Positions 11,108 to 37,564 of a DNA stretch of 46,651 nt are shown in pieces. Under the pieces are notes generated by a model. That model did no database searches. It was not told the origin of the DNA and saw only the letters and a list, made by a program, of their open reading frames with translations. Numbering within the stretch: position 1 is the stretch's first letter; the number at the start of each line of letters is the position of its first letter. Made by a program: the position numbers and the translations under genes. The stretch is from positions 1 to 46,651 of IMG/VR virus record IMGVR_UViG_3300016474_000913, one strand, 5' to 3'. The DNA is from a virus (Duplodnaviria > Caudoviricetes).

Positions 11108-11126
11108 ATCCCCCCGCCACCTGAGG
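11108..11126 (-). promoter_or_regulatory. Repeated upstream motif, copy C
   Basis: CCTCAGGTGGCGGGGGGAT, 43 nt before the ATG. Confidence 0.55.
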
Positions 11127-11234: not shown

Positions 11235-11238
11235 AGGT

Positions 11239-11994
11239 TTAATCTACTAGCGGCAAGTTTTTGGCAACCGCCTCGGGCGGCACCTGCCTTTGGTACGTTG
11301 GCCGGTTGGCCTTTTCCCAACAGGCTGCCACCTCCTCTTCTGCCCGGACATAGTCGTCCGGAGTTAAGAGGTCTGAACCCCACTGCTCCTCGTCGAGAAG
11401 CAGTATCTCCCGCATCACCTTCAGAGCTTCTTCTTTGGTACCTCCACAGAGGGTACCGTTGTATACATGACCGCACACTGCGGCCACGTATATTGCCGGG
11501 GTTAACTGGCTGAGCCCGCCATAGGCGGATCCTAAGTGGTTGCGTATTCTGTACGCCAGGTCTTTTGCCCTTAGCTTGCCGGATGTTTCAGCCACCGAGC
11601 TTTCAAAGAGCTCGGTTAAGAACGTGGAAGCTTTCCCCGTTCCGGTGTTAAACCGGACGAGGGCCACGTTTTCTTGTGGATATACATCCACTTCTACTTT
11701 CCTTCCGGGAGTCCACGTTCCTTCCCACTGTAGGGTGAAGCTTGATTCACCATCCACGATACAAGTAGAAGGAGCGTTTTCTCTTTCAAGAAAGAAAGCG
11801 TGTCTTTGTATCATGACAGCCCACTCTAGATTACTAAGACCCTTTAGGTCTCTAGGAGCCATAGAGTGTCTGAAGTTTTCATTCCAACGGTACTCAGCAT
11901 TGGCAAGACGAGCCCATATATCGAGACCTGTTCCCACACTTACGTGGAAAGAAAACCAACCGTCTTCGCAATCGTTTACAATTATATTTTCCAT
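11239..11994 (-). CDS. Hypothetical protein, 251 aa
   Basis: GAGGAG RBS before MENIIV. Confidence 0.7.
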   Translation of the reverse strand: MENIIVNDCEDGWFSFHVSVGTGLDIWARLANAEYRWNENFRHSMAPRDLKGLSNLEWAVMIQRHAFFLERENAPSTCIVDGESSFTLQWEGTWTPGRKVEVDVYPQENVALVRFNTGTGKASTFLTELFESSVAETSGKLRAKDLAYRIRNHLGSAYGGLSQLTPAIYVAAVCGHVYNGTLCGGTKEEALKVMREILLLDEEQWGSDLLTPDDYVRAEEEVAACWEKANRPTYQRQVPPEAVAKNLPLVD

Positions 11995-12036
11995 GGTACT
12001 CTCCTCAACAGAGGGACTCCTGCAACATGCAGGTAT

Positions 12037-12055
12037 ATCCCCACGCCATTTGAGG
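12037..12055 (-). promoter_or_regulatory. Repeated upstream motif, copy D
   Basis: CCTCAAATGGCGTGGGGAT, 42 nt before the ATG. Confidence 0.55.
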
Positions 12056-12192
12056 TAGATAGTCCGTGGGTACAGGTAGCGCACCCACACCGCCGTCGCA
12101 TCCGGTGAGCGCAGCGAACGCCAGGGGAAACCTGCCAGCCGGCAGAGGTGTCCGCATCAGAATGTCCCCAGTTCCGAGCGGGTGATGTACCC

Positions 12193-12262
12193 TGACGGAC
12201 TTGGAACCGTCACGTCCCGTGGGGACGGCGCATTACACCCCCGATGAAGGGGTGTCCTCTGC
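12193..12262 (-). ncRNA. Twister self-cleaving ribozyme (type-P5 permutation)
   Basis: GCA-GA-GGA-[CACCCC/GGGGTG]-TAA-TGC-GC-[CGTCCC/GGGACG]-[TGACGG TTCCAAGT CCGTCA]; both pseudoknots can pair. Confidence 0.85.
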
Positions 12263-12759
12263 TAGATGGAAGAGTTCCATGCGTCATGGAGAGGCTTTAG
12301 ATCCAATTTTGCCCTGAACAATTCATAATCGTTTTGTCCCTCATACCTTTCAGAAACTTTAAGATCTCTTTCCAAAAACTTTTCCAATTCGTACATTTTA
12401 TTTATGCACCTCTGGCAAAGCTTTCTGGAAACAACCTGATGGTTTTTGCAAGCACTACACATAGCTTTCATGGCAGGGCTTTCCAGGATCGCCCCGTTCT
12501 CTTCCCATCCCTGAGGAGGATTCTTGTGAACATACCACCGAACCCTTCGAGCGGCAGCCTCTTTGGTAAAGAACTGAGGAGCCATCAGCCGCAGAGCTTC
12601 GGTCTCTGCGTCTTCGTAACTCTTAAACCCTCTTCCAGATTCCAAGCCGACCGACTCTTTCCATCGAAGCCTTAGCCTGTACTCGCCGTTACCAGCGTGT
12701 ACATAGATGTCCAAACCGCTCAATGATTCATTCACTAAAACCAATTCATTCTTCAACAT
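12262..12759 (-). CDS. Hypothetical protein with CxxC...CxxC
   Basis: AGGAG RBS; CSAC and CQRC. Confidence 0.75.
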   Translation of the reverse strand: MLKNELVLVNESLSGLDIYVHAGNGEYRLRLRWKESVGLESGRGFKSYEDAETEALRLMAPQFFTKEAAARRVRWYVHKNPPQGWEENGAILESPAMKAMCSACKNHQVVSRKLCQRCINKMYELEKFLERDLKVSERYEGQNDYELFRAKLDLKPLHDAWNSSI

Positions 12760-12795
12760 GTCCTATCTCCTAATTAAAAGTTCTCAAAACCAAAA

Positions 12796-12820
12796 CAGCC
12801 CCTGGAACACCCAGAGGCTG
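12796..12820 (-). promoter_or_regulatory. Conserved bulged hairpin plus U-rich tract before the RBS
   Basis: CAGCCTCTGGGTGTTCCAGGGGCTG-TTTTGGTTTT; near-identical to 15502..15528. Confidence 0.5.
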
Positions 12821-12840
12821 TACTAAAAAGCTCAACAAAC

Positions 12841-15075
12841 TTACTTGCCCTGAAGCTTGGCATACATCTTCAGGTAGGTATCAAACATCTCCTTGCGACA
12901 GAGGATATGATCCGTCTTCTCCTCCGTGTGGCTGCCCACATGGGCGAGGACAACCATAACCTTGTGCCAGGGATTGCCATACTTGGCCTCGGTGAAGTAG
13001 TTGACCAAGTAATCCAGATGACCCTGGACCTCCTGACGGATCCACTCATGACCTTCCGTGGTGATGACACCCTTCTTGCCGGTCCGGTGTGGGCACTTGC
13101 CATAGACAGCGCACATCTTGAGGTACCGTTTCTGGACCAGGTCGATGTGCTCCTGGCTCACTGGACTCGACAGGAGACTGAGATAGTCCTGACGGTTCCA
13201 GGCGACGAGGATGCGATCCTCAATCTCCTTGCGCACAACCTGAACCATCCCGGCAAGTTCGTCCACCAACCTGGTGTAGAAGGAATCCCGCAGGCGTCCC
13301 TCCCCCTCCAGCTTGGAGCAGATTGAATCAAACTGACCCTTAAAGAAGCCACGGCACTTGGCCAGCAGCCGTTGATCTATCGGGAGTGTCGTCTCGTAGA
13401 TCAAGTGGCCGACCATGGCCCTGGCTCTCTTGATAATAAACTCGATGTCCCGGGGGTCCCGAGTCTGCATCATGGCATCCACGATGCTTTCCATCTGAGG
13501 CATGTGCTGATTGCGCTCGCCCCTGGGATGGCTGGCATTCCAGAGGGTCACAAGGTTGATAATCCCGCCGGGGTTGCTGCCGGCAAGGGAGAGGTCCAAC
13601 AAGGCATCCTGAAGCCCATACTCACCTGCAAGCGGTGGAACTGGGTGGGTCTTGCTGGGCAGCTCGACCATTGGACAAGTCTTGTCCAGCTCCGTTGCCT
13701 GCGCAGGCAGCGCAGGAAGCTCTAGGTCTGGAACCTCCACCGGTGGTGTGCCGATAAACTTGTAGACCGAGTACTCACCTCGGTCCGAAGGATTCCTCTG
13801 CATCCAGACCATCGTGTCGGATCCCCGCTTGCGGAAGATCTGACACAGTTTGTCATCCGCATCCATGCCGCCATGGTTGCGTAGGTTGGACACGTAGTCA
13901 AAGTTGCTGACCACGTACACCATATACTCAGGGTCATAGACACAGCAGCCATCTGGCACGGTGATGTCCTTGCCAAGCATGCGCAGGACATCCACGGACA
14001 CCAGTTGACAGTAGGTTGCACCGGGTATGCGAACCCGAATGCTGAAATCCTCCGAGTCTACCATCCGGTCAATCCCGGGCAGGATTGCCTGGCGCATGAG
14101 CGCCGCTGAATCCCGGATGGAACCATAACTGTGGAACTGCGCCGCCTTGAGGCGGCTGAAAGTCGACTCGGACTCCTCCAGCCTGCCGTGGATAAGGTCC
14201 TCAAGGAGCTCTTCGTAGGTCTCCTCGAGCATCCCTTCCTGGACCATCTCCCGCTTGCGATCCAGCTCGGCAAGCAGCCAAGCATAGACCTGCGTGGACT
14301 TGGGATCCACTCCGACACCAATTCCAAACATCTGCGGAAAATTCCGCATGGCCTGACGGTTGGTATACGCCTTTAGCTTGCCAGGCTGAGGGTCGAGGCC
14401 GATGTAAAACGCATCCGTGCCAAGGGTCAGTTCACTCTTGATGTTGGTGCCGTGCAAGAGCACGTCACACCCTGTCAGCTTGTCGCTGACAAACACTTGT
14501 CCCTTGGCATGCTTGCCTTGGAACCAGAGCCTGCCATTGAACACTTTAGTCCCTGCAAACATGTGCAAGGCCTCGTTGTCGTCGCAGTTTGAGACTCGAT
14601 TCAAGGATTGCTCCTTGACCGCCTCCCAAAGCCGGGCACTGATGACAATGGCACCGTCGGTGGTCTTGGACCGGCGAGGTCCGTAGAAAACCTTGGTTCG
14701 GAAGTTGCTATTGCTGAAGACCCCGAAGTAGGTGTAGGGACGCAGCAACTGCGCCCCACGCTTTCCTGACTTGGCTCCCCTGCGCAGGGAGAAACCCAAT
14801 TCCTTAAACCAGCCAAGGAACTTGGTTTCGGTGTTGGTCAGGGCAAATATGACCGAGTCACCTTTATTGATCATATACACAAGGTTCTTAAGTCCCTTGA
14901 AGAACTGATTAAGAACACTAGGCTTCAACTCTTTGCGATCCAAAGACAAAGAGTAAACCTTATAGGATCTACCTTTGCTGGCTATCTCCAGCAGATGGTA
15001 CCAACGGCCGTAACGGCCCTTGAACTCATTGGAAGCCAATAACTTTGCAAACGCCATAACATTGATCTGACTCAT
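12841..15075 (-). CDS. Putative single-chain two-barrel RNA polymerase (QDE-1/RDR/YonO-like) with a permuted catalytic region
   Basis: Motifs in order: TDGAIVIS, FNGRL...AKGQV, AYTNRQ, RVRIP, HGGMDADD, RNP, NPGGIIN, SIVDA; GAGGAG RBS before MSQINV. Confidence 0.75.
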   Translation of the reverse strand: MSQINVMAFAKLLASNEFKGRYGRWYHLLEIASKGRSYKVYSLSLDRKELKPSVLNQFFKGLKNLVYMINKGDSVIFALTNTETKFLGWFKELGFSLRRGAKSGKRGAQLLRPYTYFGVFSNSNFRTKVFYGPRRSKTTDGAIVISARLWEAVKEQSLNRVSNCDDNEALHMFAGTKVFNGRLWFQGKHAKGQVFVSDKLTGCDVLLHGTNIKSELTLGTDAFYIGLDPQPGKLKAYTNRQAMRNFPQMFGIGVGVDPKSTQVYAWLLAELDRKREMVQEGMLEETYEELLEDLIHGRLEESESTFSRLKAAQFHSYGSIRDSAALMRQAILPGIDRMVDSEDFSIRVRIPGATYCQLVSVDVLRMLGKDITVPDGCCVYDPEYMVYVVSNFDYVSNLRNHGGMDADDKLCQIFRKRGSDTMVWMQRNPSDRGEYSVYKFIGTPPVEVPDLELPALPAQATELDKTCPMVELPSKTHPVPPLAGEYGLQDALLDLSLAGSNPGGIINLVTLWNASHPRGERNQHMPQMESIVDAMMQTRDPRDIEFIIKRARAMVGHLIYETTLPIDQRLLAKCRGFFKGQFDSICSKLEGEGRLRDSFYTRLVDELAGMVQVVRKEIEDRILVAWNRQDYLSLLSSPVSQEHIDLVQKRYLKMCAVYGKCPHRTGKKGVITTEGHEWIRQEVQGHLDYLVNYFTEAKYGNPWHKVMVVLAHVGSHTEEKTDHILCRKEMFDTYLKMYAKLQGK

Positions 15076-15100
15076 ACTATACTCCTCTAGAAACACAAAA

Positions 15101-15129
15101 ACCCGCCGATCCAACGTGGACCAGCGGGT
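15101..15129 (-). promoter_or_regulatory. Hairpin plus U-rich tract before the polymerase RBS
   Basis: ACCCGCTGGTCCA-CGT-TGGATCGGCGGGT followed by TTTTGTGTTT. Confidence 0.5.
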
Positions 15130-15206
15130 CAAACACAAGTAAAACCAAACGATCTACTCTGCCCCTGACTCAGCGGCAGATGGGGTTAACGGAAACATTC
15201 GATTGA

Positions 15207-15473
15207 TTATCGACTAGAAAACTTCCTCGCCTCCTCATCGGGCAAGGTTTCAAATACTTTGTAGTCCCACGTGGACCAGGTATCCGTGTGGTCCGGCTCC
15301 ACACATTCGATCACTTTCTCCTCCTCCTCGATCTCATAAAAGTTATCCGACTCGTCCTCGTGTCGAAGCTTGAGAATCCTTGCTTCCATATCAATCCACT
15401 GTTGGCACTTGTTGCAATAACGACCATCCTTGATGGATACGCCGCATTCGCCACAGAAATCTAAACTGTTCAT
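15207..15473 (-). CDS. Small Cys-rich protein (paralogue 1)
   Basis: CGEC...CNKC; C-terminus shared with 15607..15843. Confidence 0.7.
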   Translation of the reverse strand: MNSLDFCGECGVSIKDGRYCNKCQQWIDMEARILKLRHEDESDNFYEIEEEEKVIECVEPDHTDTWSTWDYKVFETLPDEEARKFSSR

Positions 15474-15501
15474 ACTCAATCTCCTGTGCCATAAACACAA
15501 A

Positions 15502-15528
15502 CAGCCACCTGGAACACCCAGATGGCTG
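15502..15528 (-). promoter_or_regulatory. Conserved bulged hairpin before the RBS
   Basis: CAGCCATCTGGGTGTTCCAGGTGGCTG-TTTGTGTTT. Confidence 0.5.
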
Positions 15529-15555
15529 CACGATCCGCTATGGCCACGGATCAAA

Positions 15556-15601
15556 GACCTAGTGGGGGCATCGAACCCCCAAGTCGCCTATCGACTAGGT
15601 C
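15556..15601 (-). ncRNA. Mini tRNA-like element (acceptor-like stem plus T-arm)
   Basis: GACCTAGT-CGATAGGCGACTT-GGGGG TTCGATG CCCCC-ACTAGGTC. Confidence 0.5.
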
Positions 15602-15606
15602 AAAGG

Positions 15607-15843
15607 TTAGATAATCTTTGAGAACTTCTTTGCCTCCTCATCAGGTAAGCTGTCAAACACTTTACGATCCCACGCAGACCAGGTATCTTCGTAATCGGGC
15701 TCCACGCACTCGTGATCCTTTGGGTAGCAAAAGATTGGATCTGAGTCAGGGGTTATTGGTTCATGAAGGTACACATGCTCACAGTGGAGCACCTCTGTGA
15801 ACCCATCGCCCATCAACTTGCCGCCACAATGTTTGCAATTCAT
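15607..15843 (-). CDS. Small Cys-rich protein (paralogue 2)
   Basis: CKHC...HCEH; ECVEPDxxDTWSxWDxKVF..LPDEEAxKFS shared with paralogue 1. Confidence 0.7.
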   Translation of the reverse strand: MNCKHCGGKLMGDGFTEVLHCEHVYLHEPITPDSDPIFCYPKDHECVEPDYEDTWSAWDRKVFDSLPDEEAKKFSKII

Positions 15844-15870
15844 ACTCAACTCCTGTGCCATAAATGAAAT

Positions 15871-15897
15871 CAGCCACCCACAACGTGTGGATGGCTG
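15871..15897 (-). promoter_or_regulatory. Conserved bulged hairpin before the RBS
   Basis: CAGCCATCCACAC-GTT-GTGGGTGGCTG; same base of stem as 15502..15528. Confidence 0.45.
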
Positions 15898-15902
15898 CAA
15901 TG

Positions 15903-15971
15903 CCGGACTTGGGACCGGTTACCGCTATGGCCTCGGTAAGTGCATTACTCCCCTGTCGGGGAGCCCTCTGC
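15903..15971 (-). ncRNA. Twister self-cleaving ribozyme (type-P5 permutation)
   Basis: GCA-GA-GGG-[CTCCCC/GGGGAG]-TAA-TGC-AC-[TTACCG/CGGTAA]-[CCGG TCCCAAGT CCGG]. Confidence 0.85.
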
Positions 15972-16201
15972 TACTTGATCTTTTTTCTTTTGTAAATTTC
16001 CTCCTTCACGGTTGTTATAAAATTTCTAATAGCCTTGATTTCAAGGCTAAGAGAGGTGTTTACTATCTTGGCGTAATGGAGGTCCACCCCCCATAATCCG
16101 TTTTCATCTATCATTTGTTCTTGCAACTCTGAAATTTCTGCAAGCTTGTCATAAACCATGTCATCAAGTTTCATACAGCCAACCTTAGAAAAATCGTACA
16201 T
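15971..16201 (-). CDS. Hypothetical protein, first gene of the leftward block
   Basis: TAAGGAG RBS before MYDFSK. Confidence 0.6.
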   Translation of the reverse strand: MYDFSKVGCMKLDDMVYDKLAEISELQEQMIDENGLWGVDLHYAKIVNTSLSLEIKAIRNFITTVKEEIYKRKKIK

Positions 16202-16264
16202 AACCAACTCCTTATGATCGAGTGATTGATCCGTACCGTCCGGGCACAACACAAACATGTGTTG

Positions 16265-19426: not shown

Positions 19427-20776
19427 ATGGCCAAGCGTAAGCCGAAGCTCCAAATCCCTCCTGACCAAGCCTCAGACAGGGACCTCTCCACCCTTCTCTC
19501 TTACGGGCCCTCCTTCCTTCCCTACGTCGCCGCCTGGACCGACTCCCGCATCGAGCAGGTCCGAAACTTCAAACACTGGATCTACATCGCCATCCGCACC
19601 ATCGCCCGCCAGGTTGCCAGCCAGATCCCCAACATCTCCTGGGTCGAGCACAACACCTACGCCACGCCCCGCTCGAACTACCTGCGCTCCAAGGCCCTAA
19701 TCCCGCTCCTGTCCCACGAGGACCTCAAGCCCGTCCCGAACAACCACCCCCTGATGCGGCTCATGAAGGATCCCAATGATCCCGACACCAGCTACGACCT
19801 CTGGTATGAGACCATCCTCTTCCACCACCTGACCGGTTCCGCCTACTGGTGGATGCCCCGCAACGCCCTCGGCCTGCCCGCCGCCATCTGGGTCGTGCCC
19901 TCCCACTGGATGTGGCCCATTGTCGGTACCGACAAACTCATCGAAGGCTACGAGATCCGTCCCATCGAGGGCAACTACTTCCGCAAGTTCCTGCCCATCG
20001 AGGAAATCGTCGTCTTCAAGGACAAGTCCCCGATCTCCAAGATCGACGGCTACTCGCCCCTGACCGCCGGTGCCCAGTGGGGGGACACCGCCGAAATGAT
20101 CAACCGCTCCCGGTGGCACGCCTACCGCAACGGCACCTTCCCCACCGTGGCCGTGCAGTTTGACGGCAAGTACCAGGATCCCTCCGACGAGGACCTGCGC
20201 CGCATCGAGTCCAAGTTCATGTCCCGCTACACCGGCGAGACCCGCACCAACAAACCGATGTTCCTGCCTCCGGGCGTGTCCGTGAATCCCCTGTCCCTCG
20301 GCATCAACCAGATGCTCTTCGGCGAGACCTCCCAGGAGGTCCGAGACAACATCCTCGCCCTCTTCGGCGTCCCCGCCTCCGCCGCCGGACTCACCAAGGA
20401 CATGACCTACGGCTCCGTGATGGCCTCGCACGCCGCCTTCATGCAGCAGACCATCAACCCAATCCTCCGCTACTTTGGCCAGGTCATCACCGAGAAGATC
20501 GCCAAGCGCTACGACGACACCCTGAAGGTCTGGTGGGAAGACATCACCCCGCACGACCCCGAGCTCACCGAGAAACAGATCCAGACCGACCTCATGTGCG
20601 GCGCCATCACGCCCAACGAGGTCCGCATCATGCGAGGCCGTGAGCCCTACCCGAACACTTGGGGCGACAACCCCATCCTGCCCGTCAACGTGGCCTCCAC
20701 CCCCATGGGCGGAACCCACCTGCCTTCCACGCAACCCCTGTCTTCTCCCAACGACAACAAGGAGATCCAGCCGTGA
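19427..20776 (+). CDS. Portal protein (HK97 family)
   Basis: LTGSAYWW, DGYSPL, NGTFP, ILALFGVP, TINP and ITPNEVR motifs; first gene of the head module. Confidence 0.9.
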   Translation: MAKRKPKLQIPPDQASDRDLSTLLSYGPSFLPYVAAWTDSRIEQVRNFKHWIYIAIRTIARQVASQIPNISWVEHNTYATPRSNYLRSKALIPLLSHEDLKPVPNNHPLMRLMKDPNDPDTSYDLWYETILFHHLTGSAYWWMPRNALGLPAAIWVVPSHWMWPIVGTDKLIEGYEIRPIEGNYFRKFLPIEEIVVFKDKSPISKIDGYSPLTAGAQWGDTAEMINRSRWHAYRNGTFPTVAVQFDGKYQDPSDEDLRRIESKFMSRYTGETRTNKPMFLPPGVSVNPLSLGINQMLFGETSQEVRDNILALFGVPASAAGLTKDMTYGSVMASHAAFMQQTINPILRYFGQVITEKIAKRYDDTLKVWWEDITPHDPELTEKQIQTDLMCGAITPNEVRIMRGREPYPNTWGDNPILPVNVASTPMGGTHLPSTQPLSSPNDNKEIQP

Positions 20777-23418
20777 GCGACAAGTTCACCCCCTCCGCCC
20801 AGGACCTCCTGAGCGCCGACCTCATCCAATCCTTCCTCCGGGACCGCCGCCGCCACATGCAGGAGACCATTGCCAAGTCCGGTGTCTCCCCCTACCCTAC
20901 CCAATACCTCCGCAACATGGCCCGGACCCTCTCGAACTCCGCTTCCTCGCCCCTGGCCCTGGACGCCGACGACACCGAGCCACCCGTGGTCGACACCTCG
21001 AAGATGACCGCCAAGTTTGTCATCACGACCTCCGACCGGGACCGCCACGGTGACATCGTCATCCCCCGTGGCTGTGTGAACCACCTCAAGAACTACACCC
21101 GCAATCCCCGGGTCTTCTTCGCCCACAACACCAATGACCTCCCCATCGCCTCGGCCCGGGACCCCGAGGGCAACCTCGCCCTGGACATCCTCGATGACAA
21201 GATCTACTCCACCGCCTACTTCCACGGCGAGACCCGGGAGTCTGAGATCATCTTTCGCCTCATCGCCCGCAAGGAACTCCAGGCCAGCTCCATCGGTTTT
21301 CTTCCCATCCGAGCCACGATCCTTTCCCTCGACGATGAAGAAGACCTCGTGGACCTGGAGACCGGTGAGGAGATCCTTGACTTCCGTGGCAACCAGACCC
21401 GGTCCACTCCCGCCCTCCGTTTCCTCGAATGGGACATGATCGAATGGTCGGTTGTCCCGATTCCCGCCAATCAGGAAGCCCTGGCCGCTCACCTGTCCCG
21501 GGGCCACGTCGAGGGCGAAAAGCTTTCCGCTTCGATCAAGCGCACCCTGTCCGCCTACCTTCCTGTAAGAAAAAGTACCACGTTTTCGTTACACGTCACC
21601 TCAAACGATCCCGAAGAATCCGCCATTGAGGCCCTGGAAAACGAGATCGAAAAGGAATTGGACGCCGAAAGCCATGCCGAGGACTCCGGCAAACCCGACC
21701 CCGAAGAACTCGACGAGGTCTACAAGAAGTACAAAGAAGAAACCAACATGTCCTACTCGGCCCTCAAGAAGTGGTCCGAGAACCCCTGCGCCAAGCGGGC
21801 CTCCCTGGACAGCGGTCCCCTGAAGCGCAACCTGGAACTCCTCTCCACGGCCAAGTCCTCCTGGACCAAGAAGCACGTGAAGTGGGCCAACAAGACCATC
21901 TCCTTCAACTCCCGCATGCGGGGCATGCCCCGGGGCAAACCCCTCTCCCAGGAATGCCCCTGGTCGAAGCGGGACATCAGCCTCAAAAATTGGGCGTGGG
22001 ACCCCGGTCAGACGCCCAAACCCAAGAAAGACCTCGACGAGGAAATCATCCACGCCCTGCCCGCAGGCCCGACCCCTGGCGTGGACCTGCCTCTCCTGGA
22101 CAAGGGCGACGCCCCGGCACCCCCGAAGGACCAGATCACCGGCAGTGACACGAACAAGCCGGGTTCCGCCTCAGACGACAAAAATAAGATCGAGATCAGC
22201 AAGGAAACCGAAAAGGCGTTGAAGAACAAACTCGAAGAACACAATGAGAAGATGAGCGGCAAACCTGCCTGGGCCAAGACAACCTTGGGCGCTCTCAAGG
22301 CGGTCTACCGCCGTGGCGCCGGGGCTTTCTCCACATCGCACCGTCCGAAGATGACTCGTGCGCAGTGGGCCCTTGCCCGGGTGAACGCTTTCCTCTACCT
22401 CTGCAAAAACGGCAAACCGGAGAACGAAAAGTACGTCAGCGACAACGACCTCCTGCACCACGACCACCCAAAGTACTCCAAGGAGAAAAAATCCCTGGAT
22501 ACCCTCGAAACCCGTGGCGTGATTCCCTTCCACGCCTATCCCCTGGCTTCGGAAACAACAGCGTGGGACGGACCGAAGGCCCGTGCCTCCGCCGACACAG
22601 AAACGCTCCAGAAAATCTGCGCCTGGTACGACGACAGCAACGCCGACAGCAAGTCCGCCTACAAGCTGCCGCACCATGACGCCAAGACCCTCAAGACCGT
22701 ATGGAATGGAGTCAGGGCAGCGATGGCCGCTCTCCTGGGCTCGCGAGGCGGCGTGGACATCCCTGAAAAAGACAAATTGGGTGTTTACAATCACCTCGCA
22801 AAACATTATAAAGAATTCAACAAACCGACTCCGGAATATCGCAAATTGTACACCCTTGAGGAACTGAAGGCGATCTTCCCGGACCTTGACCTTAAGGAGC
22901 TTACCGCCGTGAGCATCAACGAAGAACTCGAACTCAAGAGCGCCCTTGACGCACTCCAGTCCCCTCCCTCCCAGGGCAAACCCAAAAAGAAAACCGAAGA
23001 CGAGGAAGACGAGGACAAGGCAGCGGCTCCTGAGGAAGAAGAAGCCAAGGCCGAGGACGAAGCCGAGGAAGAAAAAGCCTCCGATGAAAACGATGAGGAA
23101 AACGAAAAGTCCATGGACGACGAAGAGGAAACCAAGGAAGGCGACGAGGAAGAAGACGCCGACCACCATAAGATCCTCAAGTCCATGAGCGAGATCCTCA
23201 ACTCGATGCACGAGTGCTCCACCGCCCACACCGACCTGCTCAAGGGCATCCACGACAAACTCGACAAGTGCATGAAGGCCCTCGAGCCCAAGCAAGACGA
23301 GGAAAAGGCACCCGAGAAGGAAGACGAGATGAAGACCCTTCTTGGCGCCCTGACCACCCTGAAGTCAAACCAAGACGCTTTAAACCGTCGGCTGTTTGAG
23401 GTGACCGGCAAGAAGTAA
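20773..23418 (+). CDS. Prohead protease (HK97-type) fused to accessory domains and an acidic scaffold-like tail
   Basis: DRDRHGD, NPRVFFAH, SSIGF and EWSVVPIPAN; GTG start overlapping the portal stop. Confidence 0.85.
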   Translation: MSDKFTPSAQDLLSADLIQSFLRDRRRHMQETIAKSGVSPYPTQYLRNMARTLSNSASSPLALDADDTEPPVVDTSKMTAKFVITTSDRDRHGDIVIPRGCVNHLKNYTRNPRVFFAHNTNDLPIASARDPEGNLALDILDDKIYSTAYFHGETRESEIIFRLIARKELQASSIGFLPIRATILSLDDEEDLVDLETGEEILDFRGNQTRSTPALRFLEWDMIEWSVVPIPANQEALAAHLSRGHVEGEKLSASIKRTLSAYLPVRKSTTFSLHVTSNDPEESAIEALENEIEKELDAESHAEDSGKPDPEELDEVYKKYKEETNMSYSALKKWSENPCAKRASLDSGPLKRNLELLSTAKSSWTKKHVKWANKTISFNSRMRGMPRGKPLSQECPWSKRDISLKNWAWDPGQTPKPKKDLDEEIIHALPAGPTPGVDLPLLDKGDAPAPPKDQITGSDTNKPGSASDDKNKIEISKETEKALKNKLEEHNEKMSGKPAWAKTTLGALKAVYRRGAGAFSTSHRPKMTRAQWALARVNAFLYLCKNGKPENEKYVSDNDLLHHDHPKYSKEKKSLDTLETRGVIPFHAYPLASETTAWDGPKARASADTETLQKICAWYDDSNADSKSAYKLPHHDAKTLKTVWNGVRAAMAALLGSRGGVDIPEKDKLGVYNHLAKHYKEFNKPTPEYRKLYTLEELKAIFPDLDLKELTAVSINEELELKSALDALQSPPSQGKPKKKTEDEEDEDKAAAPEEEEAKAEDEAEEEKASDENDEENEKSMDDEEETKEGDEEEDADHHKILKSMSEILNSMHECSTAHTDLLKGIHDKLDKCMKALEPKQDEEKAPEKEDEMKTLLGALTTLKSNQDALNRRLFEVTGKK

Positions 23419-29779: not shown

Positions 29780-32700
29780 ATGGCCGCCCAAGATCCCTAC
29801 GGAGCATCCCACAAGCGTGAACGCCTGATGCAGACCCCCTACACAGGCGTCGAAGCAGTCCGCAAGATCTTGGAAAACTTTGGAGCTATTAACTCCTGGA
29901 TAACACGTTTGGGGGATACACTTTTTTCTGTTTCGGAAGCAGCAACCCGAATTGACTATCAATTTCGTTCGCTGGCAAACTTTATTCAGATGAGCCGTTC
30001 TTCCGGTTCAGGAAGGGGAGCCTCCGGCGGATACAACACTTCTTTTTTCAAAAAAGGCTCTAAAAGCAATCTGGACTCCATGCAAGAGCGTCTGGACGCT
30101 TATGACCTTGAACAGTCCAAGAAAAAAGAAATTCGAGACAAATACTTTCAAAAACAGACCAATGCAGAAAAGCTCAAGGAATACAAATCTTTCCTGAAGC
30201 TTAAGGAAGACTACCAGAAACAAAGCCTCCAAAAAATGCGCATTACTCTCATGGGTTCCTTTGCCTATGAGGAGTTAGCTCGCAAAAAAATTCGTCAGGC
30301 TATTAACGCAAATTCTTCCAGTACTTCCCGTCCTAAGGCTGGAAAAGATTCTTCTGATAAACCTGCCGCTTCTGAATACGTAGCCCAGTATGACAAGGCG
30401 ATGGAAGAATCCCGTAACCGGGGTACAGCAGCCACCGCCACCTTTGATATGGAAACAGCGGCCCCTGAGGGCGTTGATGTCCGCACAGAAGAGTACAAAA
30501 AAGCCGCCGAGATCATTCAGCTTGGAATCGAACTGGGATTTGCCGACGGCAGCAAGAACATCAGCAAGGTTTGGAATTTGCCCAAGGACGTGGCCACCAA
30601 CATGCCCCAGGACTTTGAGGGCACGGGCAAAGACTTTTTTGAAGTTTTGGAAAAAGCTTACAACGCTGCCAACAAGGCGATGCCAGAAGACGTGGCCAAG
30701 GAAATTGCTGAGCTTTCCAAACAGATTGGGGAATTTACCCTGATTGTTGGAAAAAACGCCAAAGGTTTTGACACGGAAATTCTTAACAGCTCCACCTCCA
30801 ATAAGTCCCGCACCCTGGGTGAAGCTATGGAACCCTTTACGGGATCCAAGAATACCCAGCATGACATCGGGGAGATGTACGCGGAGATTTTCAAGAAAGA
30901 GCGTTACCTTTCCGGTGCGAACAATGAGAGCCCCACTTTTCAAAAAATGTGGGCCATGTTGCCCGATGACAAGGCGGCCAACACACCTAGCGATGACTAC
31001 AGCTTTGGGTTGGAGACCATAGCGCAGGCAATGGCTCCCCAGCTTATGGAAAAATTTGGCGTAGATGTCAACAAGGTTGGCTTTCATCAAGCAGACGAAG
31101 ACAACAAGATCTCGGCCATGTTGCACATTCTTGGCGTTGAGATGTTGCGCAACTTGGATAAATCCATTGGAGCCGAGCCACCAGAAACTCCTGCTTCAAA
31201 CTTGGCGGAAGACCCTGAGAAATATGCCAATGCTGTTCAAAACGTTTTAGAAGAGCTCAATAAGAATCTGACTGAACAATTCAAACCCAAAACAAAAAAG
31301 AAGCGCAGAAAGAAAGCCGCTCCTAAGCCTGAGCCAAAAACTCCTCCAGAGGATATCAAACCCGAGCCGGAACCAGAAACAAAACCGGAATCAGAAACAA
31401 AACCAGAGCCTGAAACTAAACCCGAAGAAAAACCAACGGTCGATTCTTCTTCAACCTTAGATACTCCCGCCCCTGTTGCTGAAAAACCAGCTCCTGTAGA
31501 AACTCCAAAAGCGGTTCAAGTTAAACCTAAAGCAAAAAAGTTTAGCTTTGAAAAAGCAATCGAAGATTTTGAAACAGCTTTTGAAAGTTTGTTTGGAGAT
31601 TTTTCTAAACAGTTTAAAGCGTTTGAAGGAAAAGCTCCTTCCAAAAAAGTATCTATTGGTGCCGAGACAACTAAAGAATTTTTGGGATTCCCGAAAGGTT
31701 ATCAGGAAATAATCAGAAAATTTCAAAGACAGTTTAATATTGATCTTTCTAAAATTTCTGATTTTTCTAAATTTCAACTCAAAAAGTTTAAAGAAGGAGA
31801 GACACCTGGCGGAACTTACAACCCTGGTACTAAAGGCATATCTTTATATAGCGGCAAAGATAGATATGAAGAAGAGGTTTTAACTACTTTATTTCATGAA
31901 AGTATACATGCTTTATTTGATAAATTGCGTAAAAGTAGCGGATTAAAAGATATTGGTGGTTTTGCAGAAAGTATGCCTTCTGAGGATTTATTAACAGAGC
32001 CTCAAAAAGAAATTGTCAAAAAATACAAAGAACTTGTTAAAGCTTCTCGTCGTGCAATGATAGCGGCAGTTTCTAAACAAAACTATTTTGGATTTAATGC
32101 GGATACTTTAAGAGCAGCAATAAAAGATTTTAAAAATTTTGGCGACTATTTAAAAAAACCTGAAGAGCAAATTGCATCACTTTTATCTATTCAAGAGTCT
32201 GGTCAGCTTACGCAAACAAATGTTTTTAAAGACATAGATAAAAATAAAAAAGAAAGGGATGCTAAAAATAAAGGAAAAAGTACTGATATAGAAGAAAAAC
32301 AAGAGTATGTAAAACCAGAAGGCTATGCCTCAAAACTTAAAACATTTATCCAAAAAATCCTTCGCCCTGTTCTTTTAGCAGGAACCCTGGCCAGCGGCAT
32401 AGCCATGGGCATGCCTGCCGCCGCTCAGGCAGAGATGCAAAATCAACCTACCCAGTCTCAAAGCGTACAGTCCGAAAAAGGAGGGTACAAGCCTTACGTC
32501 CCTTCCAATAAACCAAGTCCTTATACTACCTCGGAAGAGCAAGACAAAGGATTAACTCATGAAGATAAAGCTTGGAAACATTTTGAACAGTTTGGGTACA
32601 AACAGGGATTTAAAAAACAACCGGCAACCTTGGCCCGATATCTAGTCTCCTTGCAACAGGCGGGTATAGGACAAGATCAAATTAAAGAGATTGAGAAAGA

Positions 32701-35700
32701 ATTTTATCGAATTACCGAATTGTACAAACAAAATGGACAAATAACATCTTCTTCTTATCCCCGAGCAGGCAGAAAAGATGGATTTAACCGTAAGTTAAGT
32801 ACAGGCGAATCAATAGAAGCGAATGCAAACTGGTCAGGGAAACATACCCCTAGCGTGCATTTTCAAAAATATTTGAGTGAAAAGCATCCAAATGTTTCCA
32901 GAAGTATGCCTGTTTATGAGGATAGTGATCATGAGTCTTTTGAAAAGGATTTTAAAGATCAAACTTTCAAAAAAGCAGATACTCTTAAAAGGTCGAGTGA
33001 CGCTGCAACTTGGGACAATCAGTGGTATTCCAACAAAAAATTATCGGACTTTGAAGCTCCGTTTACCAAACCTTCTGTAGCAGAACCACCAAAAGTCGAG
33101 CCTTCTCAACCTACGCCTCCAAAGATGGAAGCTCCCAAGGCGGAAACCCCAAAATCAGCAAATCCGTCTCAGTACAATCGTTCAAGCCTTGAGCCCGGAA
33201 AAGACTACAGCGTCAAAAACTACCGTTTGATAGATGCTGACACGCTGGAAGTTGAGGTTAACGAAAAACCAGGTAAACATTCCATCCGACTTGAAGGTAT
33301 TGACGCTCTGGAAAAAGACCAAGCGGGCGGAACTGAAGCCACCGAAGCTTTACGTCAAATTCTCAAAGGCAAGTCTCAAACCTTCAGAGCTCAAAAGTTT
33401 GATCGTTACGGAAGAACAGTTGCTGGCAATCTGACCGCTGGTGGTCAAGACGTAGAAGCTGAAATGTTACGCCAAGGCCATGCCGTGGTCTACCGTGGCA
33501 AAGGCTTTAACCCCGAAAGAGCTGCTCAGTTAGCTCCGTTAGAGCAACAAGCTAGGGCAGCTAAGTTAGGAATGCACGCTTCCGGAAATGCCATTGACCC
33601 TTTTCAGTTTCGAAGAAACAAAGACAAATCCCAAGCTCAGATACAAGCTGCTGAAACTGGTCATATGCCCGGGATAATTTCCCAACAAGCGGGAACGGTT
33701 ACTGGGAATGCACGAGCAGAAATGGAACAAGTTGCAAATGCCGTGCAGTCCCTAATCAAAGATGTGGTTCAAACAACAGTAGAGGTTCAAAACACCCTAT
33801 CCACTGCCCCTCCAGACTTTATTAAAGACCAAGAAGCTTCCCAACCTTCTACGCCAAGCACTTCAACAGCCGCTCCTCAACTTGCCAAGGATCAAGAGTC
33901 CCTTGAAGAAACCAGTAGAGGGTTTTCCAAAACCTTAAAAACTCTTTTGGGAAATCTTCTTCTAGCCCTTGGCGGAGCAGGCTTAACAGCGGGAGGCATG
34001 ATAATTGCCGGAAGTAAAAAAGACGAAGAGGAAGAAGAAGAGACGGAAAAGTCTCGAAGAGCCCGTGGAATTTTTCCAAGTCGCAAAGAGATTCAAGATC
34101 GCTGGGATAAACGCAAAGCTGACCGACAAAAGCAGTCCGAAGAAGCCAAACCTGAAGAGACCCCACCTCCTGATTTTTACGGACCTAGTCGTCAAGACAA
34201 ATTAAGAGATTTGGCCTTCAAGGATCTTCGCAGAGAAAAACTTGATGAAGATGAAGAAAAGTTTTTAAACGAAGGAAATAATTTTGATGAAGTTTGGAAA
34301 ATTATTGATTCGATAACCGAATTTGAAAAAGATCAAGATTTTAATCAAAAAGCTGCATATACGAAAAATTTAGACATCCAAGCCCTTGGTTTTTCCCACA
34401 ATAGTAAAAACTTTCCTTGGGAAATGACATCTCAAGATTATGTCAGCCAGGAACAAGGCAAATTTTCCGAGGCTATGAAAAGGGGCATGAGTCCTGATCT
34501 AAAGCCTTCTAATAACAAACTTGCGGCAGAGCACTTTGAAATAGTTAAGGAAGCACTTGGCAAGGGATTCCAAGTTCCAGATAACGTTAAAAAAGAGTTT
34601 GAGGAATTTCGCCAAAGGTTGGCAAACATTGTTCAGGAACCCCCTGTTAATCCTGACAGCGCTAAACTTGTCGAAGCAACCAAGGAAGAGGTAAAGCAGA
34701 AAAAACTTCTGAATACCGAAACTAAAAAACAGATCAAAACCATCAAGGAAGGAAACAAGTTAGACCAAGACGCCAATAAGGAAACTAAAAAGGAAATTGA
34801 CCTTAAGGCTGCCGGTTCCAAATCAGCAAGTGACAGTGATCAACCCATCAGCTTCAAGGACGCTATCAAGCAGACCCTGGAAAGAATCACCGGCGCTGCC
34901 TACGTCCCTGAACGAGAGGGTGGTTTAGTCTCCGAGTATGCCGGCAAGGCCAAAGACCTTATGGCCAACTTCTTCAAACCCGGCAAAGAGTTTGATCCTT
35001 ATCTGAAAGCCCGTTTTGGAAAAGGCAAGGAGGAGTCTACCCCATCCGAAGAAAAAACAACTGTCCCTTCAGAGAGCTCAGCTTCTTCGGAAACCATAGG
35101 CTCAGAAGCCTCCCCAACCAGGGAAAACAAAGCCAGCTTTATGCAAAAAGCCAAAGGCAAATACCTTCGCTTTTTAGCCAAAGCCCGGAACACTTACAAC
35201 ACCGTTGATCAAAAAACCTCTTCTTGGGATGAAGCTTTGACCTCAATGGTCGAAAACTTCTTTGGAGGCGGAAAGCCCAAGGAAGATTCCAAGCCCACCG
35301 CAACTTCCAATCCCATGGACGTTGCTTCTGTTAAACGAGATTTAACCAGCGGCAAGGACAACAAGCTGGCCGCCGTGCAAGACGGCGAAGCCATTATCAA
35401 CCCCAAAGCTACTGCCGAAAATAAAGAAGTTTTGGGTGCTATAAATTCTGGTAAGCCTAAAGGATCTTGGGTTAAAAGATTGTTTGGAGGTCGTTTTGCT
35501 AAAGGCGGTATCGTAGGCAGTGTTTTTGGTTCAACCACAGGACGCTCCATCACCGGTGGCAGCGCCCGTCCCACCACCTTTGGAGGACAGTTTTCCGCCG
35601 GCGATCCCCTGGCACCCCTGAAGCTGTGGGTCAAGGACTTTGCCAAGAACACTCAGACCGGATTCCTGGTCAAGAGTTTCATGAACCTGGGCAACGCCGC

Positions 35701-37564
35701 CTCAAACGCCATGAACGTCCTGGCCGGATTCACCAAGGGATCCGACACCTTTGGCACCCTGATGGGCTCCATCGAACTCCTGACCGGGGAAATCGGCATT
35801 GCCCTGACCCCCATCATCCTGCGCATCTCTGCCCTACTGCAAGGCATGGCCCGAGAGATCCAGCACGGCACTGGGTTCTTTGGTGGACTGGTCAAGAGCG
35901 TCACCGACTTTATCAACAGCATCTCCGCCGGGGACCTCAAGCTGCTGGTCTCCATCGGCGCCCTGGCCTCCGGAATCACCGCCCTGATGCCGCTTTTTGG
36001 AATCTTTTCCAGCGTCATCGGTATCTTTGCCACTGGCATTTCCATGGCGATGGGTCTCCTGACAAGCCCGATCATCCTGCTGGTGGGCGGCATCATTGGA
36101 CTCATCGGCTACTTTGGCGGACTCAATGCAATCATCAAGACCGCCCAGGTCCTTTGGAACAACCTGGGAACGGTCCTTACCGCCGTTGCCGTGGGCATTG
36201 CCGGTTGGATGGCAATGATGATTGCTCCAATGATTCCCTACATTGCCGTGATTGGTGCGGTGGCCCTGGCCTTTGGCGTGGTCATCAAGGTGATCGACAT
36301 TGTCACCGGAGCCTTCTCCAAGCTGGCCGACTGGGCCAAGAGCATCTTTGGCATCAAGAGCAAGGATGAAAAGCAGAAAGAGTCCAGCCAGTCCTACGCT
36401 GAAAAGATTGCCGGGAAGGGCGGCGAGAACAAGGAGGAACGCCAGAAAGCCCTGGAAGCCGCCAAGCAAGAGCAGGTGAAGAAGATCAAGAGCCTTGAAA
36501 AAGAAGCCAATGACGACCTTGCCCAGGCCAGCACCATGACGGACAAGCAGGGCAAGGAAAGCTTTCGGGCAAGCGCCCGGGACATTCGCAACAACAAGCT
36601 GCCCGAGGAAAAGGCCAAGCTCAAGGCGTTGGAAGAGCAATCTGCCAAGGAGAAACAAGCAGACTTCAAACCACCCGCCGCAGCCCCTGAGGGCACAGGG
36701 ACCGGACTCAACATCCCTGGCCTTGGCCAGATCAAGATGCCAGACATCTCCGGCATGCTTACCAACATGGCCGGAAACATCCCAGGCGGTGACAAACTCA
36801 AGGAGATGCTGGGATCCATGGCGCCCTCGGGAGCCCCTAAGCCTACCACAAAGGCCGAACCGGGTTCTGTAAAGTCCGCCACCGGCAAGGTCTACAAGGA
36901 CGAGATCGTCGACACCACGGGAAACACCCAGTACCGCATGAATGAAAAGTACAAGGGCGAGGCAGCCGAACACCGCAAACAGGCGGAAAGCTACCGCAAA
37001 GATGCCGAAAACTATGCCCCAGACACCCGTACGCACCAGGACCGCATGGCCAAGGCGGAGTACTTTGAGAACCAAGCCAAGGAAAAAGAAAGCTTCATCA
37101 AGAACCAGACCACCGGCAAGATGGCCGCCAAAGACGTGCAGTTTGTGGATGAGCACGAGGCACGGGACAACACCCTGCACGAGGAGAATCAGGCCAAGAT
37201 CAAAGCGGGTCGCAAGATGGAAGTCCTTCAGCACATGAAGGCCAACCCGGAGATGTACCAGAAAACCTATGCCTCCGAGGTTGCTGAGAAAAAGAAAGCG
37301 GCGGCTGACAAAGAGGAAAAGAAAAAAAACCTGAGCGACTCTTTGGCTGTCTCCCTAAAAGCCAACCGTGCGCAGCCTGCTTACTCTTCCATCGAAGAGG
37401 CCTACAAGAAAATCCAAGTATCCGCCCTGGGAACAGATTCCATGGATGCCGCCAAAAACGAACAACTAGAACGTGGCACCAACAAGATGCTGGGAGAACT
37501 CAACGGCATCCAGCAGGCCGTAAACGGTGTGACCCAGGAAATTCGTCAAACCCGCATGAAGTAA
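29780..37564 (+). CDS. Tape-measure-like polyvalent protein with DEDDh exonuclease, HExxH metallopeptidase and thermonuclease domains
   Basis: Position after the chaperone; FDMET/GKNAKGFD/HQADED; LFHESIH; IDADT..IRLEGIDALE..DRYGR; hydrophobic helices near the C-terminus. Confidence 0.85.
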   Translation: MAAQDPYGASHKRERLMQTPYTGVEAVRKILENFGAINSWITRLGDTLFSVSEAATRIDYQFRSLANFIQMSRSSGSGRGASGGYNTSFFKKGSKSNLDSMQERLDAYDLEQSKKKEIRDKYFQKQTNAEKLKEYKSFLKLKEDYQKQSLQKMRITLMGSFAYEELARKKIRQAINANSSSTSRPKAGKDSSDKPAASEYVAQYDKAMEESRNRGTAATATFDMETAAPEGVDVRTEEYKKAAEIIQLGIELGFADGSKNISKVWNLPKDVATNMPQDFEGTGKDFFEVLEKAYNAANKAMPEDVAKEIAELSKQIGEFTLIVGKNAKGFDTEILNSSTSNKSRTLGEAMEPFTGSKNTQHDIGEMYAEIFKKERYLSGANNESPTFQKMWAMLPDDKAANTPSDDYSFGLETIAQAMAPQLMEKFGVDVNKVGFHQADEDNKISAMLHILGVEMLRNLDKSIGAEPPETPASNLAEDPEKYANAVQNVLEELNKNLTEQFKPKTKKKRRKKAAPKPEPKTPPEDIKPEPEPETKPESETKPEPETKPEEKPTVDSSSTLDTPAPVAEKPAPVETPKAVQVKPKAKKFSFEKAIEDFETAFESLFGDFSKQFKAFEGKAPSKKVSIGAETTKEFLGFPKGYQEIIRKFQRQFNIDLSKISDFSKFQLKKFKEGETPGGTYNPGTKGISLYSGKDRYEEEVLTTLFHESIHALFDKLRKSSGLKDIGGFAESMPSEDLLTEPQKEIVKKYKELVKASRRAMIAAVSKQNYFGFNADTLRAAIKDFKNFGDYLKKPEEQIASLLSIQESGQLTQTNVFKDIDKNKKERDAKNKGKSTDIEEKQEYVKPEGYASKLKTFIQKILRPVLLAGTLASGIAMGMPAAAQAEMQNQPTQSQSVQSEKGGYKPYVPSNKPSPYTTSEEQDKGLTHEDKAWKHFEQFGYKQGFKKQPATLARYLVSLQQAGIGQDQIKEIEKEFYRITELYKQNGQITSSSYPRAGRKDGFNRKLSTGESIEANANWSGKHTPSVHFQKYLSEKHPNVSRSMPVYEDSDHESFEKDFKDQTFKKADTLKRSSDAATWDNQWYSNKKLSDFEAPFTKPSVAEPPKVEPSQPTPPKMEAPKAETPKSANPSQYNRSSLEPGKDYSVKNYRLIDADTLEVEVNEKPGKHSIRLEGIDALEKDQAGGTEATEALRQILKGKSQTFRAQKFDRYGRTVAGNLTAGGQDVEAEMLRQGHAVVYRGKGFNPERAAQLAPLEQQARAAKLGMHASGNAIDPFQFRRNKDKSQAQIQAAETGHMPGIISQQAGTVTGNARAEMEQVANAVQSLIKDVVQTTVEVQNTLSTAPPDFIKDQEASQPSTPSTSTAAPQLAKDQESLEETSRGFSKTLKTLLGNLLLALGGAGLTAGGMIIAGSKKDEEEEEETEKSRRARGIFPSRKEIQDRWDKRKADRQKQSEEAKPEETPPPDFYGPSRQDKLRDLAFKDLRREKLDEDEEKFLNEGNNFDEVWKIIDSITEFEKDQDFNQKAAYTKNLDIQALGFSHNSKNFPWEMTSQDYVSQEQGKFSEAMKRGMSPDLKPSNNKLAAEHFEIVKEALGKGFQVPDNVKKEFEEFRQRLANIVQEPPVNPDSAKLVEATKEEVKQKKLLNTETKKQIKTIKEGNKLDQDANKETKKEIDLKAAGSKSASDSDQPISFKDAIKQTLERITGAAYVPEREGGLVSEYAGKAKDLMANFFKPGKEFDPYLKARFGKGKEESTPSEEKTTVPSESSASSETIGSEASPTRENKASFMQKAKGKYLRFLAKARNTYNTVDQKTSSWDEALTSMVENFFGGGKPKEDSKPTATSNPMDVASVKRDLTSGKDNKLAAVQDGEAIINPKATAENKEVLGAINSGKPKGSWVKRLFGGRFAKGGIVGSVFGSTTGRSITGGSARPTTFGGQFSAGDPLAPLKLWVKDFAKNTQTGFLVKSFMNLGNAASNAMNVLAGFTKGSDTFGTLMGSIELLTGEIGIALTPIILRISALLQGMAREIQHGTGFFGGLVKSVTDFINSISAGDLKLLVSIGALASGITALMPLFGIFSSVIGIFATGISMAMGLLTSPIILLVGGIIGLIGYFGGLNAIIKTAQVLWNNLGTVLTAVAVGIAGWMAMMIAPMIPYIAVIGAVALAFGVVIKVIDIVTGAFSKLADWAKSIFGIKSKDEKQKESSQSYAEKIAGKGGENKEERQKALEAAKQEQVKKIKSLEKEANDDLAQASTMTDKQGKESFRASARDIRNNKLPEEKAKLKALEEQSAKEKQADFKPPAAAPEGTGTGLNIPGLGQIKMPDISGMLTNMAGNIPGGDKLKEMLGSMAPSGAPKPTTKAEPGSVKSATGKVYKDEIVDTTGNTQYRMNEKYKGEAAEHRKQAESYRKDAENYAPDTRTHQDRMAKAEYFENQAKEKESFIKNQTTGKMAAKDVQFVDEHEARDNTLHEENQAKIKAGRKMEVLQHMKANPEMYQKTYASEVAEKKKAAADKEEKKKNLSDSLAVSLKANRAQPAYSSIEEAYKKIQVSALGTDSMDAAKNEQLERGTNKMLGELNGIQQAVNGVTQEIRQTRMK
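31320..31435 (+). repeat. Coding Pro/Glu/Lys tandem repeat linker (PEPETK)
   Basis: PEPETKPESETKPEPETKPEEKP. Confidence 0.6.

Follow-up and report, generated by a model that had tools for sequence, protein, structure and literature searches.

Two type-P5 twister ribozymes that share a base with upstream stop codons in a tailed-phage gene block

Two twister ribozymes behind small phage genes

The virus record IMGVR_UViG_3300016474_000913, a tailed-phage contig analysed here over its whole length of 46,651 nucleotides (nt; the window), carries two type-P5 twister ribozymes, each of which begins in the stop codon of a small gene. From 19427 on, the plus strand encodes portal, head protease, capsid, head-tail and tail proteins as judged by PHROG and Pfam, and both ribozymes sit in a minus-strand block of mainly small genes without family matches, which from its layout is taken to be the early region. 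Within this block, a 76-amino-acid (aa) open reading frame (ORF; 16201-15971) with a Shine-Dalgarno sequence before its ATG, alternatively listed with 99 aa from an upstream TTG, leads into twister 2 (15971-15903), and a 165-aa ORF (12759-12262), which has a Shine-Dalgarno sequence as well, leads into twister 1 (12262-12194). A 78-aa ORF (15843-15607, UAA stop at 15609-15607) follows twister 2, and a 744-aa protein of no assigned function (15075-12841) lies between both ribozymes; the latter is kept in related phages, and a search of viral contigs for its relatives gave no match. The proteins flanking the twisters have no informative PHROG or Pfam match (no PHROG match for the 76-aa ORF, no Pfam or PHROG match for the 165-aa ORF).

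The twister class reportedly goes back to work by Roth and colleagues in 2014. The Rfam covariance model Twister-P5 (RF02684, gathering score 37.6) matches 15972-15903 with 47.2 bits (E 7.6e-07) and 12263-12195 with 40.0 bits (E 5.5e-05), and these are the only two matches to RF02684 at gathering level in the window. Six other Rfam matches in 1-21,000 were rejected, all of them being far under their own cut-offs. In twister 1, the first P2 strand (12262-12260) is followed by the conserved GA (12259-12258), T1 (12257-12255, pairing with 12205-12203), P1 (12254-12236), the predicted cleavage site between U12235 and A12234, the second P2 strand (12232-12230), T2 (12229-12228, pairing with 12200-12199), P3 (12227-12213) and P4 (12211-12194). 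Twister 2 repeats the order, with P2 at 15971-15969, T1 at 15966-15964 (pairing with 15913-15911), P1 at 15963-15948, the predicted cut between U15947 and A15946, T2 at 15941-15940 (pairing with 15908-15907), P3 at 15939-15919 and P4 at 15918-15903. Stems P1, P2 and P4 thus stand in the P5 order in both copies, with the ends open at P5, and the T1 and T2 pseudoknots reach into loop L4. The first G of each ribozyme is the last base of the in-frame UAG that closes the upstream ORF (15973-15971 for twister 2, 12264-12262 for twister 1), and the predicted cuts, 15947/15946 and 12235/12234, fall 24 and 27 nt past these stops.

Both twisters were aligned with six copies from other phage contigs. In these eight clade sequences all core bases are kept; the catalytic-core positions (the UAA at the cut, the GA before T1 and the L4 core) are invariant columns. 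All 128 cells pair when 16 base pairs are tested in the eight sequences, and 4 cells change on both sides, a number reached in 0 of 500 shuffles; sliding the same pairs along the alignment lowers pairing to 20-48%. These controls lean towards structure, since the first sequence supplied the fold that was tested and the eight share a common origin. The pseudoknots are 100% paired, T1 with one change on both sides and T2 with one change on one side. Among the differences listed for four public DNA runs, twister 2 has a single one, located in the P1 loop, as against many in the upstream gene; around twister 1, the region 11992-12265 differs at 6-7 positions per ~270 nt in strains X2 and X7. Each part of the original prediction that concerns structure holds up at this level: the twister-P5 identity through the Rfam scores, the invariant core and the complete pairing; the element order and the compensatory differences in P1 and the pseudoknots through every named element being in its place; the shared G; and the cut positions, which as predicted sites agree with sequence and alignment.

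Compared with the RF02684 model, the two copies share the element order, core bases and both pseudoknots, and differ in a 3-bp P2 where the model has 4 (the outermost pair is absent in both), in hairpin inserts at P3, and in the first base shared with a stop codon. All three deviations are common among phage copies; the 3-bp P2 occurs in 72 of the 89 other P5 calls described below, many of them above the Rfam cut-off. Both copies are ordinary additions to a known family, and their layout occurs frequently among phages.

Stop codons beside twisters in other phages and in strains

In an effort to place the overlap in its family, twisters were collected by pattern from IMG/VR (117 loci, plus at least 124 from a further scan) and GTDB (at least 120 loci), together with 19 loci of related phages gathered via the capsid protein. 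The calling script, which demanded P1, P2, P4, T1 and T2, returned 112 P5 twisters in 380 loci and the window. Removal of one without upstream sequence and three near-duplicates left 108 junctions, and exclusion of the window's two and of 17 from two array-bearing phages left 89. ORFs are mechanical calls, with the end of the longest ORF of at least 40 aa expressed as an offset from the first P2 base. An ORF ends at -6 to +1 of the ribozyme's first base in 67 of the 89 junctions, as compared with 103 of 3,560 random positions (2.9%); offset 0 is found 22 times, always with UAG as here, -1 three times, -2 24 times and -3 11 times, and five junctions have no ORF end nearby. The proportion is similar with the arrays included (78/106) or with one junction per locus (46/65, 13 of them at offset 0), and the 89 junctions form 43 clusters at 85% similarity, ten of which have an offset-0 member. 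Stop triplets at -3 to +1 close an ORF in 61 of 68 cases (random, 186/1,480), and a Shine-Dalgarno sequence with a start codon follows within 120 nt in 68/89. These counts make the stop-adjacent arrangement the norm for P5 twisters in these collections, and overlap with the stop extends across the family instead of being peculiar to this phage. The script was checked with Rfam on 20 chosen loci; 15 have matches above the cut-off (48 matches), and the other five lie at 27-32 bits. None of seven related-phage loci reaches gathering level, the same twisters scoring 27-32 bits (E 0.0025-0.034), and the P3-type control gave 0 calls.

Several loci hold P5 twisters in arrays (4 to 11 or more per array), with one after nearly every small gene (L022-L025, L063 and L085, from two IMG/VR contigs; also L058, L068/L069, L074, L252 and L028), and in the two large arrays a UGA stop often lies within P2. 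A Gemmataceae metagenome-assembled genome contig (L246, 1482-1523, plus strand) carries a twister with a broken first P2 pair, where a 13-codon mini-ORF ends on the cut-site UAA. Its ribozyme-plus-hairpin unit resembles that of the phage clade; its genome gave a capsid match of 24% only (E 3.8e-4) and no portal match, and Gemmataceae were not adopted as host.

Twisters of the P1 type served as a second comparison. They begin at -6 to +1 of a stop in only 2 of 39 cases, and 6 of 39 lack a nearby ORF end (one locus, L011, received both a P1 and a P5 call). When these six and one with an internal stop are dropped, the median distance from stop to predicted cut is 30.5 nt (n=32), as compared with 29 nt for P5 (n=83), and a hairpin with z below -2 lies within the final 40 nt ahead of the cut in 22 of the 32. 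Cut distances and hairpins combined, both permutations would therefore leave an upstream message that ends in a hairpin close behind the stop; P5 would use its own P1 as this end hairpin, which places its 8-nt lead segment against the stop codon.

Strain contigs from public DNA runs differ at these junctions. In X7 the 165-aa gene is absent and a 26-nt spacer separates twister 1 from the UAA of the 744-aa gene, with the first G of the ribozyme marking the joint; contigs of X2 and X3 lack the 76-aa gene together with twister 2 (joint 15476-16206); and two X10 records leave twister 2 at 15971 into sequence without a UAG, though with a weak consensus. Two related-phage loci, L364 and L366, have a gene and its UAG in common, with a twister behind it in L364 only, and in L367 the stop is at -7 from the twister. 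A switch should keep its overlap in all close homologues, and X7, L367 and, with its weak consensus, X10 do not. The stop overlap is dispensable.

A tRNA-like fold and other features of the block

Five nucleotides after the UAA of the 78-aa ORF, fold prediction gives a 46-nt tRNA-like structure without an anticodon arm (15601-15556, minus strand), with a 7-bp acceptor-like stem, a short D-like arm with GG and a T arm; as a cloverleaf with anticodon arm it is called by neither ARAGORN nor Rfam. The upstream sequence of strain contigs changes at 15600/15601. On its 3' side follow a free-standing hairpin (15552-15532), a long hairpin, a U tract and a ribosome-binding site. The free-standing hairpin is nearly identical to P3 of twister 2, sharing the inner stem and 8 of 9 loop bases; the two are the sole close copies in the window, and the P3 loops of related phages differ. 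The repeated hairpin may be a protein-binding site or the remnant of a duplicated ribozyme.

Pattern scans for this mini-tRNA gave at least 209 matches in 207 sequences, or 125 after clustering, of which 25 were set aside as parts of real tRNAs. At least 19 copies including the window's close into the fold with differing stem sequences (relatives at L382, L383, L388, L394, L402, L408, L413, L428, L431, L462, L467, L483, L498, L541, L556, L569 and L587). Conservation of the D-like arm is no evidence here, because the search pattern fixes it. Eight of 18 other copies start within 12 nt of an ORF end (random, 58/1,080) and four have no ORF end nearby; the twister loop motif occurs on the mini-tRNA strand in none of the 18 loci. 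Like mascRNA/menRNA (RF01684), the element has an acceptor-like stem, a short D-like arm, a T arm and no usable anticodon arm; unlike mascRNA, which belongs to a vertebrate long non-coding RNA, it sits between phage genes. The window copy has no Rfam match to that model at E up to 5, and 3 of 13 relative loci match weakly (25-30 bits, E 0.018-0.47, against a gathering score of 42.5). Literature searches found no paper on phage mini-tRNA processing signals. As a candidate reading based on the modelled fold, the mini-tRNA may be a cutting signal for RNase P and RNase Z in the twister's slot, doing the twister's job via a host enzyme.

Twister 2 is followed by a unit of long hairpin, imperfect U tract, Shine-Dalgarno sequence and ATG (15897-15843, minus strand). 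Similar long-hairpin units begin at 15529, 15130 and 12821 (minus), directly before ribosome-binding sites, and also lie 3' of twisters in related phages; the hairpins are candidates for weak terminators or 5' protecting stems. Behind twister 1 lies a 200-nt conserved non-coding stretch (12193-11994, minus) whose 3' part is a repeated cassette, a candidate promoter-like or regulatory element. On three other occasions the cassette comes after an intrinsic terminator (11234, 10685 and 9862); here it is twister 1 that lies between the gene end and the cassette. By eye, neither the 200-nt stretch nor the cassette fits a hammerhead or HDV-like ribozyme. A 14-nt G-rich motif, repeated upstream of four genes (12050, 11121, 10621 and 9743, minus), lies inside a longer duplicated cassette (12125-11995 and 11195-11065) and probably serves as an early phage promoter or as the site of a regulator; sigma-54-like spacing is seen in the copy at 11121. 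Upstream of the first small gene, at ~16293-16275 (minus) and also in L364 and L366, a conserved -35-like hexamer is followed by a C-rich tract and no canonical -10 box, a candidate promoter of the block.

Elsewhere in the window, the 78-aa ORF is paralogous to 15473-15207 (93-nt repeat, 76%). An ARAGORN tRNA-Leu call at 11567-11665 (plus), antisense within a gene and without Rfam support, was taken as false. A 1,028-aa lysine-rich protein without family match (19468-16382, minus) is divergently oriented from the portal gene and shows only ~23% identity in phages with an 88% identical portal. The ORF of the head maturation protease (20659-23418, plus; 919 aa from TTG) has long acidic stretches and a DUF5824 segment, and a 2,594-aa tail-region protein, likely the tape measure (29780-37564, plus), contains a staphylococcal-nuclease-like domain at residues 1169-1265 (Pfam SNase, E 6e-14).

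Probable transcript processing and its alternatives

We consider mRNA processing with an incidental stop overlap to be the best reading of these data, at a probability of about 0.6; it draws on the gene context and the precedent of prophage hammerheads. Twisters cleave between U and A, leaving a 2',3'-cyclic phosphate and a 5'-OH. Both copies would cut a multi-gene phage transcript in cis shortly after the stops, the transcribed RNA folding and cleaving itself to give these ends. The P1 hairpin would stay on the upstream message, 7 nt past the stop, so that its 3' end is hairpin-capped like that of a terminated transcript, and RNA polymerase would go on past the cut site. The downstream piece would start with 5'-OH, P3 and P4, plus the further long hairpin in the case of twister 2, before the next ribosome-binding site, its next ATG being 103 nt (twister 2) or 240 nt (twister 1) from the cut. 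Each gene block would gain its own ends and half-life. The one-base UAG overlap most likely marks how tightly the elements can be packed: P1 is preceded by 8 nt of core, and no stop fits further into the core. A UAA directly before the core would become a UAG overlap on loss of one A, with further loss impossible, and the pile-up at offset 0 and the dip at -1 could have arisen neutrally by such losses. Many phage twisters show the overlap and some close strains lack it, so it probably reflects tight packing rather than a switch.

Among known systems, RNase III splits the early transcript of phage T7, and T4-type phages carry early promoter/stem-loop cassettes. These resemble the present block in that structured intergenic sites split an early transcript gene by gene and repeated modules serve small-gene swaps; they differ in that they need a host nuclease or are promoters, whereas here the RNA would cut itself to yield 5'-OH and cyclic-phosphate ends. 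The closest precedent comes from prophages, where tandem hammerheads flank short, variable genes, cleave in 2-kb transcripts and in E. coli, and gave no detected circles (Perreault et al. 2011, PMC3088659). They were proposed to cut long transcripts into single-gene or operon-length mRNAs (PMC3088659). Both cases place self-cleaving RNAs between short, variable phage genes; the ribozyme class differs, and here the P5 twister's own P1 would provide the 3' hairpin of the upstream message. The phrase "stop codon" is absent from the main text of PMC3088659. Polycistronic mRNA processing has been suggested for bacterial hammerheads and twisters alike, with their role left unresolved (PMC6765202).

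A number of observations weigh against processing with an incidental overlap. After ribozyme cleavage, glmS mRNA is degraded by RNase J1, so a 5'-OH is not always stabilising (PMC3997798), and the sign of its effect here depends on the host. Four terminator-like hairpins lie between both ribozymes, and the transcript may be split at these already. P2 of twister 1 pairs with a probability of just 0.38 when 40 nt of upstream sequence are included in a fold that ignores pseudoknots. The offsets are sharper than mere closeness would give (22 at 0, 3 at -1 and 24 at -2), and P1 starts a median of 9 nt after the stop as compared with 20 nt for terminator-like hairpins of the same loci (n=30); such a near start and such sharp offsets could reflect selection for ribosome contact. 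In strain X2, 73 codons have been lost in frame (228 nt skipped, 9 nt between), and the UAG of twister 1 is still present. A joint in X1, whose short side has just 24 letters, suggests that another gene ends at the UAG of twister 2, and counts against dispensability.

The alternative closest to the claim of the original prediction, that cleavage is coupled to translation termination, has a ribosome terminating on the UAG hold P2, the catalytic G and T1 in its mRNA channel, with cleavage only when the stop is free, so that cutting would report on translation of the upstream gene; we regard this as rather unlikely. The channel of the ribosome has its edge at +13. With the stop at +4 to +6, the catalytic G comes to +9 and the start of P1 to +14 in both copies, and of 81 other P5 twisters that follow an ORF, 63 have the catalytic G no further away than +13. 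A ribosome terminating at the stop would lie over the catalytic G and, on physical grounds, probably slow cleavage to some extent; the sharp offset peaks agree with gating, and terminating ribosomes do shield an RNase E site 10 nt after the rpsO stop (PMC3997798). Geometrically, then, the coupling is possible. As a selected function it finds no support, given ribozymes without overlap (the 26-nt spacer in X7 and the weakly supported X10 records), the same gene and UAG without a ribozyme, and P1-type twisters that seldom touch a stop and have their core beyond the reach of the ribosome yet have their predicted cut at the same distance. A lower spacing limit set by the ribosome was rejected, since stops further in are already ruled out by the core sequence, which thereby sets the nearest limit, +14. 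It is quite improbable that the ribozymes are mainly repeated conserved DNA for swapping gene cassettes from ribosome-binding site to stop, with cleavage just insulating the incoming gene. Breaks in strain contigs do fall no more than 3 nt from the point where twister 1, twister 2 and the mini-tRNA begin, a minor contig fuses a twister-2-like half to a twister-1-like one, and upstream genes vary between related phages; recombination, however, needs neither invariant catalytic bases nor covarying pseudoknots, and cassettes also swap at Shine-Dalgarno repeats without a ribozyme (joints 15476-16206 and 11238-11992). Such shuffling is compatible with transcript processing and does not exclude it.

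Inactive or slow relics, retained only as hairpins, would account for the 3-bp P2, for the closest relatives falling under the Rfam cut-off at 27-32 bits, and for upstream sequence that can compete with P2 of twister 1. We think this very unlikely, for the core is invariant in all eight clade sequences, the differences listed for the four runs include a single one in twister 2 as against many in its upstream gene, and the 3-bp P2 is the majority form, with many such copies above the cut-off. Least probable of all is that both cuts together release a 3,712-nt RNA (15946-12235) with four genes, whose 5'-OH and cyclic-phosphate ends are ligated to a circle. The ribozymes have the same orientation and, by twister chemistry, their ends would be compatible; the four terminator-like hairpins lie in between, several relatives have a single twister in the DNA examined, twister 2 is absent from X2 and X3 contigs, and the tandem prophage hammerheads gave no detected circles (PMC3088659). 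A broader and rather doubtful proposal would have early operons consist of swappable cassettes, each ended behind its stop by a terminator, a twister or a mini-tRNA cut by RNase P and RNase Z, with the P5 twister gated by the terminating ribosome.

Literature searches found no paper on the overlap of twisters and stop codons, although Roth 2014 and Weinberg 2015, with their genome-context supplements, may already show the placement; the available portions of PMC5052635, PMC5737381 and PMC13725137 hold nothing on the stop-codon placement of natural twisters. What self-cleaving ribozymes do in bacteria and phages has yet to be settled (PMC6765202). To this question the present comparison adds a rule: both twister permutations are predicted to cut about 30 nt behind a stop, with a hairpin remaining on the upstream message, and this suggests that 3' ends form there without termination. 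Ready controls come from natural pairs in which one gene occurs with or without the ribozyme, or one ribozyme with or without the overlap. If cleavage were gated by the ribosome, or if the mini-tRNA were the host-enzyme counterpart of the twister, this would constitute a new layer of phage gene control.

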